Source: an uncultured Gammaproteobacteria bacterium
GTDB lineage: Bacteria > Pseudomonadota > Gammaproteobacteria > Chromatiales > Chromatiaceae
Reading direction: 5' to 3'
DNA: 64,000 bases
Assembly (NCBI GenBank): GCA_937862735.1
Contig: CALMDH010000243.1
Coordinates: forward strand, 1,423-65,422
Within the stretch, counting starts at the first letter, position 1; each line of letters begins with the position of its first letter. The position numbers and the translations under genes were made by a program. Positions 16,798 to 26,464 of this stretch are shown one piece after another. The notes under the pieces were generated by a model, which saw only the letters and a list, made by a program, of their open reading frames with translations, made no database searches and was not told the origin of the DNA.

Positions 16798-18408
16798 TCA
16801 GCCTCCGGATTGCTCATGGTCCGCCGGCATGAAAATTGTAATCAACAGCGAACGCGCTCGAGTCATGCCGACGTAGTGGTCCGGGATTGACGCGTCGGGG
16901 TTTATCGGTCGGGGTAGGTCGACCAGGATCACGCATTCGTTCTCCAACCCTTTGAACTGTTTGATCTCGGCAAAGCTGATACCGCCGGGCGGGAAGCTCA
17001 GCAGCGCGTACTCGTCCAGCTCGATTATGTCCGCGGACACCCGGCCAGGTAGCAGCGAGACCGAAGATTCCGCCAATGGCAGTGGCGAGAGGAGGGTTAT
17101 CTCGCTGACTCCAAGACCTCCAGGGCCGGTGAGACGACGCAACTCATCCGCGAGAATGCTTGCTGCTGCCTCGCGATTGGCCGCGTCGCGAACAATCACC
17201 TCTGGGCCATTGCCTGTGCCGCGGCTACCCATATCGGCTCCGAGCAGAGCCTGGATCTCCCCCATAATCTGCAGGGTGTTGCGACAGTTCTTCCGCAGCG
17301 GCAGCGGAGCGGGGTCCGGACAATATGAATGCAGCAGTGCCAGTGCATCCGGGTCCGGCATCCAGTAGCCCGCCTGATTGTTGAAGTCGTGGAAGAAGCA
17401 CCAGCGACCCTGCTCCAGCCCATCCTTCAGAGCACCATTTAGTTGCTCCAGGGTGCTCATGTCCAGCAGATCCTGTCCCTCGTCGACGATCAACGCGTCG
17501 AAGTGGTCCACATGCGCCCTGCGGGCCGCGGTTCGCACGGCTCGGGCCAAACTCACCGTCACGCCAGGGATTGCGAATTTCTTCTCCAGCCAACGTTTTA
17601 ACCAGGGTGACTGGCAGGCGAGCAGGACCTTGCTGCCACTTGCGGACCAACGCCGCGCCAGCTCCAGGGCGAGAAAAGTCTTGCCGGTGCCCGCCCCGCC
17701 ACTGCAAATAACTCGTGCACGGCCTTCGACGAAATCCATCAGAGTCATCTGATCGGCCGTCAGCGACGCGACCCGCTGCTCGAGCCCATCGAGGGTGACA
17801 TGGAGCGGGATGCCGACGTCGAATTCCGGGCGTAGCAAGGCGTTGACGGCGGCAACGGCCTCGTCACCCGCGTCGCGAAGCCTGTGCTCGTCACGACCGC
17901 GCCAGAAGCGGTAGAGCCCCGTCAGCCAGCGCTCCAGGTCGCGCATTTTGCGGAAATCGGCCACCATCATCGGCTCCCACTCGACGCTGGAGATCGTCCA
18001 GTCGCAGTCCGGGAAGACCACGCCATAGCCCCAGGTGAGCTGAGACCACAAGGCTGGCGGCAGCTCGGCCTCGATGCGTTTGCGCAGCGCGTGCATGGCC
18101 GACTCTGCCTGGCTGAACGGACTCCGGTTTAGGCGGTTACGCTCGCCGAATTGATTGACGGTGAACCAATCGCCGGCCTCGCAGCTAATGCGCCCTCCCT
18201 TAACCTCGAGCACCAGGACACCGGCCGGGCCGACGATGACGAAATCGGCCTCGCCGAAGCGGTTCTCCGGATGCCGGGTCAGGTTCATCGAATGGAAGCC
18301 CGTCAGCCTGGGCCCGGAGCCGGTCTCGAACGCCATTCGGAGTCGGTCGAACAGAGCCTTTTCCGCATTGCTCCGGGTCGGGTACGGGGTGGACGGAATC
18401 ATCTTCAT
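16798..18408 (-). CDS. NERD-domain nuclease fused to an SF1 (UvrD/DUF2075-like) helicase
   Basis: 536 aa. The N-terminus (GEADFVIVGPAGVLVLEVKGG) is NERD / PD-(D/E)xK-like. Then Walker A SGGAGTGKT, Walker B ALIVDEGQDL, KNCRNT, KGLENECVILVDL and YVGMTRARSLL, the SF1 C-terminal motifs. It is the last gene of the five-gene operon. Confidence 0.75.
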   Translation of the reverse strand: MKMIPSTPYPTRSNAEKALFDRLRMAFETGSGPRLTGFHSMNLTRHPENRFGEADFVIVGPAGVLVLEVKGGRISCEAGDWFTVNQFGERNRLNRSPFSQAESAMHALRKRIEAELPPALWSQLTWGYGVVFPDCDWTISSVEWEPMMVADFRKMRDLERWLTGLYRFWRGRDEHRLRDAGDEAVAAVNALLRPEFDVGIPLHVTLDGLEQRVASLTADQMTLMDFVEGRARVICSGGAGTGKTFLALELARRWSASGSKVLLACQSPWLKRWLEKKFAIPGVTVSLARAVRTAARRAHVDHFDALIVDEGQDLLDMSTLEQLNGALKDGLEQGRWCFFHDFNNQAGYWMPDPDALALLHSYCPDPAPLPLRKNCRNTLQIMGEIQALLGADMGSRGTGNGPEVIVRDAANREAAASILADELRRLTGPGGLGVSEITLLSPLPLAESSVSLLPGRVSADIIELDEYALLSFPPGGISFAEIKQFKGLENECVILVDLPRPINPDASIPDHYVGMTRARSLLITIFMPADHEQSGG

Positions 18409-18418
18409 TGGTCCGACC

Positions 18419-26100: not shown

Positions 26101-26464
26101 CCGGGATCAGCTGGATCTCGACCATCTCGCCATGGACGAAAAACGAAAACCCCACCGAGGAGGGTGGTACGACCCTGCGCTTGGGCCGGCTGAGACCGGT
26201 GGCCTCGGCGCCATCTCCGTCTCCATCCTTTTCGCCTGCTAGGGAATCCTCGTCTTCGCTGTCCGGATCAGCCGGATCGAGACCGGTGTCGTCGTTGGAT
26301 ACCGGGAATAAAATGCCGGTCTGGTAGCGATCGAGGGGGCGAATGCCGCGCAGTTCTTGCCATCCGGAGGGTGGGCTACCGTCCCTAGACCTTGCGTCAG
26401 TCTCGGGGCCGATTAGACACTGGCGAAGCCAGTCGTACACTCTCTGACGTGATTCACGGTTCAT
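23123..26464 (-). CDS. DrmA-like SF2 (DEAH-type) helicase
   Basis: 1113 aa. The N-terminal region has YQTGILFP and PPSSVGFSFFV. Helicase motif I is WFPTGGGKTEAYLGL, motif II is IIQDELHLI, and the C-terminal helicase lobe has ATNMISVGLDV...QASSRVGR. A zinc-ribbon insertion (CPWCES...CTNRDC) is present. A DUF1998 gene follows directly, the DISARM core arrangement. Confidence 0.8.
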   Translation of the reverse strand: MNRESRQRVYDWLRQCLIGPETDARSRDGSPPSGWQELRGIRPLDRYQTGILFPVSNDDTGLDPADPDSEDEDSLAGEKDGDGDGAEATGLSRPKRRVVPPSSVGFSFFVHGEMVEIQLIPAAVVYDRGEERDAAGRFTSETWMPRPFGSGGNEAITIAAPTCPRSPPLRQPVFDGRAELFVLWRRQINGWLVTISLSNTQRIDDAGTGGGPGDRRDEQHADASALFGVELTCQVLKGIVGPYPRTDLALLSDEERELELRYRNHVIYAVGHGAAVDWSLTDGRVTSIRTEFLPCVEVPRVDPEAGKADGAALRVDDLAGILTHRDAICAALDRFVACYGQWIDAQQAECATLGPDLRPSGERVVARMRRAAERMQAGVDLLREDDTAARAFGLANLAMARQMRQAFLMQGGAKKRQAQRNDKAPTWRPFQLAFLLLAIKSAADEDAPERDILDLIWFPTGGGKTEAYLGLMAFVIWYRRLRYKASGGGTTVLMRYTLRLLTKDQFLRAARLICAMELMRREQPKLLGDEPVTLGLWVGGALSPNRFEDAKQLLEQAIENRETQPPSLLVLEKCPWCESPLDLRKGFDAGDQHFHFRCTNRDCAFGVSDDGLLPCNVVDSALYKTPPTLLLATIDKFARLAWEEDTSAFFGRDGNRPPELIIQDELHLIASALGSIAGLYEAGLDTVLRARGMHPKYVASTATIRMAAEQVERLYGRQRLYGDGQDDREAAIFPPPGLNAEDAYFSRTVPATDDKPGRLYIGYLAPARNRQRCLAPLAAALLAAPEALFGNATADREALLDAWWTLLIYHGSLKGVGVSRNALRDIENGIDRLRREWLELKDPADVEGGSGLGPEPWRGQLVEPDRIAHLTSHMSADENARAFARLARSRDDLEALDLALATNMISVGLDVSRLAAMIINGQPLTTAEYIQASSRVGRGAVPGIVITNYYRDQARSLSHYESFRAYHEAFYRFVEPTSVTPFTYQARRRALHAALVISVRHASDDLTANARAASFDPTKPETAKVIELLIQRCRDADPERGDVTEADLHRLVREWAALAARAAKQEQALCYKGSNRDRRGLCLLYAHDDRHKGEWPTLHNMRNVENTSVIRIL

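Follow-up and report, generated by a model that had tools for sequence, protein, structure and literature searches.

Can the helicase and DUF1998 pair of the DISARM defence system, DrmA and DrmB, serve without a cognate DNA methyltransferase, and with which partners? The question is raised by five genes, here numbered 1 to 5, at positions 16798 to 26464 of a 64,000-nucleotide stretch of DNA (the window; GenBank assembly GCA_937862735.1, contig CALMDH010000243.1) from an uncultured Gammaproteobacteria bacterium whose closest named relatives are Chromatiaceae. An earlier reading of these letters alone, the sequence-only reading, had described the genes as a modification-independent DrmA/DrmB derivative with a different effector set, in which a NERD nuclease-helicase was the likely executor. 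We followed up the locus by profile searches, structure prediction and comparison with related genomes. The explanation that we favour, at a probability of roughly 0.6, takes the five genes for a single operon, self-contained and horizontally mobile, which is related to DISARM, has no methyltransferase and keeps a DrmA/DrmB pair (DrmAB) permanently coupled to a diverged module of the DarHTG type. The methyltransferase-free state proved to be conserved, which agrees with the first part of the earlier description; the role given there to the NERD protein was not supported.

The DrmA/DrmB core and its relation to named systems

DISARM comprises DrmA, DrmB, a methyltransferase that is either DrmMI (N6-adenine) or DrmMII (C5-cytosine), the PLD-domain protein DrmC, and either DrmD (SNF2) or DrmE; its class 1 and class 2 were reportedly set out by Ofir et al. 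in 2018. The first two of these parts have counterparts in the operon. Genes 1 and 2 had been taken for a DrmA-like helicase and a DUF1998 protein, and profile checks against Pfam, PADLOC and NCBIfam agreed; a motif check recovered all motifs that had been quoted for the five proteins.

Gene 1 encodes a superfamily 2 (SF2) helicase of the DISARM/YprA clade. It matched the PADLOC model of DrmA at an E value of 4.7e-199 and the NCBIfam model DISARM_DrmAS, which stands for the "short" DrmA, at 6e-247. The latter score was 822.6 bits against an equivalog cutoff of 950 bits, so gene 1 is called DrmA-like and is no curated equivalog. The protein contains Pfam Helicase_C and the motifs YQTGILFP (residue 47), GGGKT (Walker A, 461), CPWC (574), DELH (664) and QASSRVGR (931), with a Cys-rich insert at approximately residues 574-603. 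Gene 2 scored 316.8 bits with NCBIfam DrmB_fam, over the cutoff of 240, and 1.2e-54 with PADLOC DrmB. It is a separate protein adjoining gene 1, with a C-terminal DUF1998/MZB zinc-binding domain at residues 517-617 (Pfam MZB, 1.9e-7) and the motifs LHTLAH (514) and CHAC (613), followed by SCQFGNLLLDR. The two genes overlap by 61 nt, and the median junction in 62 related loci is -59.5 nt. Such a split of DrmA and DrmB over two genes is typical of DISARM (Bell et al. 2025, bioRxiv 10.1101/2025.09.15.676423).

The other DISARM parts were not found. Neither Pfam nor PADLOC identified a DNA methyltransferase among the main open reading frames (ORFs) within 10 kb on either side of the operon, and a regular-expression search of all ORFs of at least 150 amino acids gave no motif candidate for a methyltransferase or a PLD protein in the 64-kb window. 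There was likewise no match to a PLD protein or DrmC in the operon or the ORFs of the 10-kb flanks (Pfam, PADLOC), and no SNF2-type DrmD and no DrmE within 10 kb on either side. The description of the locus as a DrmA/DrmB core without methyltransferase, PLD protein or DrmD/E is thus confirmed over this span. Because three of the five DISARM features (methyltransferase, DrmC and DrmD/E) are lacking, the cassette is neither DISARM class 1 nor class 2. It shares with DISARM the separate, adjacent and overlapping genes for a DrmA-like SF2 helicase and a DrmB DUF1998 protein. However, no DrmMI/DrmMII, DrmC or DrmD/DrmE was found here or recurs in related loci, and three other conserved partners, genes 3 to 5, are present instead.

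A core of YprA/DrmA-type helicase with varied partners also characterizes the YprA-family systems ARMADA, BRIGADE and TALON (Bell et al. 2025). Two of these show points of likeness, in that ARMADA II has a GajB/UvrD-like helicase fused to a toxin domain and TALON carries a NERD nuclease. However, the TPR-CSD and TBP genes of TALON are not present here, and we did not meet the helicase akin to BrxHII and the methyltransferase akin to PglX that accompany the single-gene YprA homologue of ARMADA types I and II; the helicase and DUF1998 parts are instead split over two genes, as in DISARM. None of the signature genes of ARMADA, BRIGADE or TALON occurs in the cassette. Bell et al. (2025) mention "many uncharacterized DISARM-like classes", and the accessible parts of their text and supplements make no mention of ADP-ribosylation, DarT or this gene set. 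The sequence-only reading had not recognised the gene combination as a named system, and we too found no name for it in PADLOC v2, in NCBIfam or in the full-text literature on DrmA/DrmB with NERD or an ADP-ribosyltransferase. The cassette is probably a phage-defence system of a kind not described before, related to DISARM, belonging to the YprA family and furnished with a DarHTG-like module.

Conserved gene order and the place of gene 5

We scanned one genome per species from 185,579 species with gene 4 relatives as the anchor. Such relatives were present in 113 of the genomes, a patchy spread. Eighty loci were fetched with 10-kb flanks, and the five window proteins were run against them by tblastn. 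The loci came from Chromatiaceae and other Gammaproteobacteria, Alphaproteobacteria, Desulfobacterota, Acidobacteria, Binatia, Chloroflexi, Verrucomicrobia and one Clostridia metagenome-assembled genome. Genes 1, 2, 3 and 4 followed one another in this order on a single strand in 67 of the 69 loci with enough upstream sequence. Median junctions in these relatives were -59.5, -1, -16 and +8 nt, and more than 92% were 60 nt or less. In the window, where five packed co-directional minus-strand genes had been read, all ORFs and junctions were as described (-61, +5, -10 and +10 nt from gene 1 to gene 5); the third junction becomes approximately +2 nt if gene 4 uses the GTG start of its 532-amino-acid database twin. 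Identities of the five proteins to those of the window co-vary across loci (Spearman rho 0.48-0.87).

The surroundings of the cassette differ between loci. When 2,255 flank ORFs from 81 loci were clustered all against all, the most frequent flanking family reached no more than 9 of the 81. Genes 1 to 4 are an obligate syntenic unit across phyla, and related cassettes occur on plasmids.

No methyltransferase was among the recurrent flank families of the 81 related loci. Regular expressions for N6 and C5 methyltransferases gave few candidates there, and zero of these were DNA methyltransferases on Pfam testing, in a screen that consisted of regular expressions plus Pfam on the candidates and was not an exhaustive profile search. 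Matches to the PLD HxK expression were scattered and non-recurrent. The loci of Thiorhodovibrio frisius and of a Lamellibrachia symbiont, for example, have the same five genes and no methylase by Pfam annotation. The window might nonetheless hold a classical DISARM in decay, from which the methyltransferase, DrmC and DrmD/E have disappeared in this genome, and the IS91 remnant and low-GC (guanine plus cytosine) scar directly upstream of drmA would fit such a loss. However, 67 of 69 loci, drawn from a set of 80 species genomes, show the methylase-less architecture as well, their 10-kb flanks have no recurrent methyltransferase or PLD family, and all five ORFs and their motifs are intact in the window. 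The architecture is therefore a conserved state, and we give decay almost no credence. Both decay and a chance adjacency of the genes were rejected on the synteny statistics (67 of 69 loci, and the junctions).

The same distribution bears on a role outside defence. The operon could be a DNA-repair or genome-maintenance module, in which a YprA/MrfA-type helicase, partner ATPases and a nuclease deal with lesions, possibly including ADP-ribosylated bases. The DUF1998/MZB domain owes its definition to the repair helicase MrfA, as its Pfam name records (PMC7797055), and an RNase_T exonuclease gene reminiscent of MrfB lies just upstream of drmA in 4-5 related loci. Gene 1, however, scores far better with the DISARM DrmA models than with others, the two-gene split of DrmA and DrmB is typical of DISARM, and, unlike housekeeping repair genes, the cassette is rare and patchily distributed, is carried by plasmids in relatives and is tied to no genomic context. 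We consider a repair module very unlikely.

Gene 5 had been described as a fusion of NERD and a superfamily 1 (SF1) helicase, and Pfam, PADLOC and motifs all bore this out. Pfam identified NERD (2.1e-9), AAA_30 (1.5e-8) and UvrD_C_2. The best PADLOC match, over nearly the full length, was RTasNERD-Hel (3.2e-45), and Nhi was matched at 1.5e-7. The NERD residues D55 and E68-V-K70 are intact, with Walker A GTGKT at residue 240, DEGQD at 309 and TRAR at 516. A NERD or nuclease N-terminus joined to an SF1 ATPase is the architecture shared with Nhi, AbiO and the reverse transcriptase-associated NERD-helicases in PADLOC; gene 5 differs from these in being embedded as an optional, co-evolving member in a DrmAB cassette, and the operon has no reverse transcriptase.

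On one reading, DrmAB is the sensor and motor, the NERD-SF1 protein is the executor that degrades invader DNA, and genes 3 and 4 are auxiliaries. The intact NERD residues and Walker motifs speak for this reading, as does the resemblance to known defence nuclease-helicases. Gene 5 is also translationally close to gene 4 (median gap +8 nt), co-varies in identity with DrmA and DrmB (rho 0.80-0.87), and is kept, elsewhere in the order, in a distant Deinococcus plasmid cassette. However, it lies directly downstream of gene 4 in only 54 of the 75 loci with room for it. It is displaced in 2 and has a divergent upstream copy in 2, and in approximately 17 loci (Vicinamibacterales, Binatia, Caldilineaceae and some Proteobacteria) no copy was detected within 10 kb on either side, nor does another gene take its place directly downstream. 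Genes 3 and 4, in contrast, are essentially never missing (67 of 69 loci). The NERD nuclease-helicase was thus not borne out as the likely executor, and we regard that role as unlikely. Since gene 5 is missing from approximately 17 loci, it is no obligate executor; it is a linked, co-evolving accessory. Its architecture would fit a single-gene, Nhi-like system, whereas its co-evolution with DrmAB argues against autonomy. The effector logic is most likely centered on genes 3 and 4, not on gene 5.

Families that do recur in the flanks are ABC transporters, SDRs, UbiD, peptidases, a PIN toxin, an RNase_T exonuclease, SNF2 and a metallophosphoesterase, and some of these lie close to the cassette. 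The RNase_T/DEDD exonuclease gene is on the same strand directly upstream of drmA, with a median gap of approximately 10 nt, in 4-5 related loci (3082-3771 in locus L002 and 3164-3781 in L026). It recalls the helicase-exonuclease pairing of MrfA and MrfB and may be a second optional accessory. An SNF2-family helicase gene, on the opposite strand, closely follows the downstream side of the cassette in 3-4 loci (L001, 13271-18603; L055, 14810-17500), with DUF3670 in L055 and a 603-amino-acid unknown protein alongside in L001; it could belong to a separate neighboring defence gene pair or be a DrmD-like relic. A PIN-domain gene of toxin-antitoxin type is found approximately 100 nt upstream of drmA in five loci (e.g., L049, 2627-3115), probably a case of co-localization in defence islands.

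Genes 3 and 4 as a candidate DarHTG-type module

DarHTG (Liu-DS3) consists of DarH, a UvrD-family helicase without a 2B domain, the toxin DarT, and DarG3, an antitoxin that resembles ADP-ribosylglycohydrolases; its activity against T4 and T7 depends on both the DarT active site and the ATP site of the helicase (NAR 2026, PMC13069673), so far as DarHTG as a whole is concerned. We compared it with the operon through plasmid examples from Cereibacter and Salmonella. In a tblastn search of plasmids with gene 3, Cereibacter plasmids were met that encode a homologous ATPase, then an annotated DarT (225 amino acids) and an ADP-ribosylglycohydrolase family protein (567 amino acids; Pfam ADP_ribosyl_GH, 4e-35), and a Salmonella plasmid has the same trio of helicase, DUF4433 protein and ADP-ribosylglycohydrolase. 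The Cereibacter locus was also considered as a possible hybrid of DrmAB and DarHTG and was rejected, the helicase that adjoins DarHTG there not being DrmA-like.

Gene 3 has the Pfam domains UvrD_C, UvrD_C_2 and AAA_19 and the motifs GTGKS (37) and DEGQD (139). Its AlphaFold2 model (predicted local distance difference test, pLDDT, 87.9) matched PcrA, UvrD and Rep in Foldseek at E values of 1e-15 to 1e-13, with approximately two-thirds of the query and only approximately 42% of the targets covered. As modeled, gene 3 is a bare SF1A core without accessory 1B and 2B domains, as reported for DarH. By BLASTP it matched, at 8e-17, the Cereibacter plasmid helicase that precedes DarT and the ADP-ribosylglycohydrolase. 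The UvrD-like ATPase seen earlier therefore stands, but calling it a second SF1 ATPase said too little, for it is a homologue of DarH (PMC13069673). Like DarH, it lacks 2B and lies directly upstream of a gene for a putative ADP-ribosyltransferase fold.

That gene, gene 4, had been described as having no recognizable motif. It has no match in Pfam, PADLOC or NCBIfam, and to this extent the description holds; a DarT-like fold is nevertheless predicted by AlphaFold2 and Foldseek, and conserved residues are evident. All 275 close homologues are annotated as "hypothetical". An exhaustive HMMER scan of 1.84 billion representatives placed the family at 631 clusters at 50% identity, and the 150 matches listed were all family members, so that none led across to canonical DarT; a tblastn search of plasmids with gene 4 gave nothing. 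The AlphaFold2 model, built with 30 homologues, is confident (pLDDT 90.4; predicted template modeling score 0.88) and has three parts: an alpha/beta domain (residues ~28-182), a helical domain (~204-467) and a small beta-rich C-terminus. The top Foldseek matches in the PDB were DarT DNA ADP-ribosyltransferases (E values from 7.6e-5, probability 1.0, template modeling (TM) scores of 0.45-0.57 on the target), namely the Thermus structures 7omx, 7omv, 7omw and 7omy, the DarTG complex of M. tuberculosis (7yk3) and DarT1 of E. coli (8baq). Among these, 7omx, 7omv and 7omw gave 7.6e-5 to 1.3e-4 and TM scores of 0.53-0.57 on the target. A second group of matches had the ADP-ribosylglycohydrolase fold (Tri1, ARH3, DraG and MJ1187; E values of 3e-3 to 0.3, probability 0.5-1.0), and the viral library BFVD gave weak matches only, two of them annotated as ADP-ribosylglycohydrolases.

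Profile searches and conserved residues bear on the same domain. The Pfam ADP-ribosyltransferase domain 2CompART (PF22546) was matched by 13 of 66 diverse family members, at best with 1.4e-5, over residues ~17-68, the first strand-helix of the N-domain; every other Pfam family was matched by at most 1 of the 66. A sample of the 10 most divergent members gave no ADP-ribosyltransferase match in Pfam, and a second, spread sample was positive. Literature under the name 2CompART was unrelated. With hhalign against 28 DarT sequences, gene 4 residues 23-181 were collinear with DarT residues 5-208 (E value 0.0034, probability 9.5%). In DarT, T15 and N19 contact the NAD+ ribose and Y71 stacks on nicotinamide (PMC9967889). 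In the weak hhalign register, these align with T/S33, N37 and F72 of gene 4, each kept in 65 of the 66 members. Further polar residues of the N-domain are conserved (N34 in 63 of 66, K56 in 59, D60 in 66, E87 in 54 and N166 in 64), as is G45, and the strength of this conservation argues for a functional pocket. Nearly invariant residues of the C-terminal part are W469, T475 and G499. Conserved polar residues are almost absent from the helical domain, which is probably non-catalytic.

As predicted, genes 3 and 4 share with DarHTG the order of helicase, ADP-ribosyltransferase fold and ADP-ribosylglycohydrolase-like fold, with a weak likeness for the last part in gene 4. They differ from it in that the two latter parts, as predicted, are fused in one 536-amino-acid protein, in that gene 4 has diverged beyond recognition by the hidden Markov models of DarT (PF14487) and ADP_ribosyl_GH, and in that the module is always joined to DrmAB, which DarHTG lacks. 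The DUF4433 domain of DarT (PF14487) is absent from gene 4, and 1 of 66 relatives matched it at an E value of 0.21; PF03747 had no match in the helical domain, whose likeness to ARH3, DraG and Tri1 is weak. As gene 4 falls outside the sequence definition of DarT and its catalytic residues are not evident, we do not count it as a member of DarTG or DarHTG. Genes 3 and 4 resemble a DarHTG-type module in fused and diverged form, attached to DrmAB.

Several observations weigh against the explanation that we favour. Some of them concern the cassette as a whole: gene 1 scores below the NCBI DrmA equivalog cutoff, the methyltransferase screen of the related loci was of the limited kind described above, and the defence role is predicted from homology and distribution. 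Others concern gene 4. All 2CompART matches fall below the Pfam cutoff. The link to DarT was not significant by profile methods (hhalign probabilities of 0.1-9.5%); hmmsearch of the gene 4 profile against PDB sequences gave nothing, and hhalign against a 3-sequence DarT set, a single Cereibacter DarT and a single Cereibacter ADP-ribosylglycohydrolase failed or was weak. TM scores to the ADP-ribosylglycohydrolases were only 0.3-0.35, and no conserved acidic metal ligands were evident in the helical domain. By the best alignment, gene 4 has no counterpart of the loop that carries the catalytic R51 of DarT, E160 pairs with the hydrophobic I131, and H13 and H16 are not kept. Because equivalents of R51 and E160 are not evident, a DarT-type reaction is doubtful, and the N-domain could be a pseudo-enzyme or a ligand sensor. 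On the strength of the structural model, we think it quite probable that the N-domain has an ADP-ribosyltransferase-superfamily fold; that gene 4 has catalytic activity of some kind is a tentative prediction, to which we give somewhat less than even odds.

Gene 4 is the best-conserved partner of DrmAB after gene 3. More divergent cassettes are found on plasmids. On plasmid P4 of Deinococcus gobiensis (NC_017792.1, 33102-43888; L084), a NERD-helicase, DrmA, DrmB, a gene 3-like ATPase, a 576-amino-acid protein and a 379-amino-acid TPR protein are encoded. The gene 5 homologue is 35% identical and lies upstream of drmA, which it overlaps. The 576-amino-acid protein shares only the N-terminal domain with gene 4 (hhalign probability 94.6%, E value 7e-8), which marks the predicted ADP-ribosyltransferase-like domain as the conserved part of gene 4. 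A plasmid of Photobacterium sp. TY1-4 (L086, 1-6231) encodes DrmA, DrmB, a gene 3-like ATPase and a fourth protein of 483 amino acids that showed neither detectable similarity to gene 4 nor a Pfam match; not every DrmAB cassette with a gene 3-like ATPase, therefore, has a recognizable gene 4 relative. Plasmid p1 of Streptomyces fungicidicus (L085, 1100-11032) has DrmA, DrmB and the gene 3-like ATPase with no fourth gene, and a 1273-amino-acid sigma-70-domain fusion protein is encoded upstream. These cassettes suggest that DrmA, DrmB and gene 3 are a wider scaffold with a variable fourth position and swappable partners.

They also speak to the possibility that the operon is a set of independent systems placed side by side, namely a DrmAB remnant, a DarHTG-like toxin-antitoxin module (genes 3 and 4) and a single-gene, Nhi-like NERD helicase. 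DarHTG is known as a stand-alone three-gene system, NERD proteins and nuclease-helicases act alone elsewhere (as the PADLOC matches to Nhi and AbiO recall), and gene 5 is dispensable in many loci. However, the order, strand and overlapping junctions of genes 1 to 4 are identical in 67 of 69 loci while the surroundings change, and gene 3-like ATPases directly follow DrmA and DrmB in the Photobacterium, Streptomyces and Deinococcus plasmid cassettes as well. We hold independence to be highly improbable.

If a methyltransferase-free DrmAB coupled to a DarHTG-type module is the correct explanation, its working may be pictured as follows. The DrmAB structure has an autoinhibitory trigger loop that DNA with a 5' overhang displaces (Bravo et al. 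2022, PMC9142583). By analogy, DrmAB would here be a sensor and translocase driven by ATP and held in autoinhibition until invading DNA that bears single-stranded 5' overhangs switches it on. As there is no cognate methylase, discrimination of self from non-self must rest on DNA structure or context, and the host would be spared through features such as free ends and single-stranded replication or injection intermediates. Activated DrmAB and the DarH-like motor would then expose single-stranded DNA and license gene 4, which might ADP-ribosylate invader DNA and so block replication, or use its putative NAD+/ADP-ribose-binding pocket otherwise. The fused helical domain would act as a built-in restraint on the N-domain, like DarG3 in DarHTG, and the NERD-SF1 protein, where present, would add nucleolytic degradation.

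A more specific version of this explanation can be stated, which we consider rather unlikely as a whole. DrmAB would be a portable, modification-independent sensor and motor that, assisted by the DarH-like ATPase, loads a non-canonical DarT-related enzyme carrying a restraint derived in cis from an ADP-ribosylglycohydrolase. With the helicase as the targeting part, foreign nucleic acid would be ADP-ribosylated, or would undergo some other NAD+-dependent modification, through N34, N37, D60, E87, N166 and F72. If this is true, the catalytic constellation of gene 4 is one not yet described for any ADP-ribosyltransferase, and the cassette would bring an effector logic that is new to the DISARM/YprA superfamily and would bridge DISARM and DarTG in evolution.

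Genomic setting and meaning of the cassette

The coordinates of the features are collected in Table 1. To the right of the block is the core operon nusA-infB-rbfA-truB-rpsO-pnp, on the minus strand, so that the block sits downstream of pnp; an SprT-like metalloprotease gene (37368-38231) adjoins nusA. The left flank holds a 2OG-Fe(II) oxygenase, a Lon-substrate-binding-domain protein, an amylase-like gene, an MFS transporter and an oxoprolinase. The block had been read as less GC-rich than its flanks and bounded by an IS91 remnant. The direction of the GC difference was correct and its size is modest (0.64-0.67 inside versus 0.67-0.70 outside); at 25-28 kb, where the drmA/pnp spacer (26465-28029) lies, GC falls to 0.59-0.61. 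The remnant is real but tiny, 100 nt of 72% identity to annotated IS91-family transposase genes; it is a mark of the island border and lies outside the system. The same spacer also holds a 141-amino-acid ORF (27439-27864, plus strand). A search for repeats detected neither direct repeats in the flanks nor att-like sites, there are no tRNA genes in the window, and scans for promoters and terminators gave sites no more frequent than in shuffled sequence. A degenerate direct repeat with a 12-nt period at 14924-15071, in 7 registers of a 58-nt unit rich in CCGGGTCC, lies at the 5' end of a 261-amino-acid ORF (14282-15067, minus strand) without a Pfam or PADLOC match; it is probably a low-complexity coding repeat rich in Pro, Gly and Asp.

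Table 1. Features of the DrmA/DrmB cassette and its border in the window.
Feature	Position	Strand	Basis
Gene 1, DrmA-like SF2 helicase, 1113 aa	23123-26464	minus	PADLOC DrmA, NCBIfam DISARM_DrmAS, Pfam Helicase_C, motifs
Gene 2, DrmB family protein, 654 aa	21219-23183	minus	NCBIfam DrmB_fam, PADLOC DrmB, Pfam MZB
Gene 3, minimal SF1A (UvrD/PcrA-like), DarH-like ATPase, 397 aa	20020-21213	minus	Pfam, AlphaFold2, Foldseek, BLASTP
Gene 4, unannotated family, 536 aa	18419-20029	minus	homologue searches, AlphaFold2 model
Gene 4 residues ~28-182, predicted ADP-ribosyltransferase-like (DarT-like) alpha/beta domain	19484-19948	minus	Foldseek, 2CompART, hhalign
Gene 4 residues ~204-467, predicted all-helical domain, weakly ADP-ribosylglycohydrolase-like	18629-19420	minus	Foldseek
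Gene 4 residues ~473-534, predicted small C-terminal domain of beta-hairpin and helix	18428-18613	minus	AlphaFold2 secondary structure
Gene 5, NERD (PD-(D/E)xK) nuclease domain (15-116) and SF1 ATPase (~216-525), 536 aa	16798-18408	minus	Pfam, PADLOC, motifs
IS91-family transposase remnant	26827-26926	not assigned (.)	blastn, 72% identity over 100 nt, E value 1e-4

We know of no account of the mechanism by which DISARM stops phage. Its logic of self and non-self has been tied to its methyltransferase. A conserved and widely transferred DrmAB cassette that is methylase-free suggests that the core can work and discriminate without a modification mark, and offers a simpler genetic background. DISARM and DarTG/DarHTG, earlier treated as unrelated, are now linked, which supports a combinatorial swapping of helicase sensors and toxin modules. 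For the unannotated gene 4 family, these results (the predicted ADP-ribosyltransferase-like fold and the DarHTG-like context) are the first functional lead, and should the gene 4 protein be an active enzyme whose catalytic residues are non-canonical, it would extend what is known of the chemistry by which nucleic acids are ADP-ribosylated.

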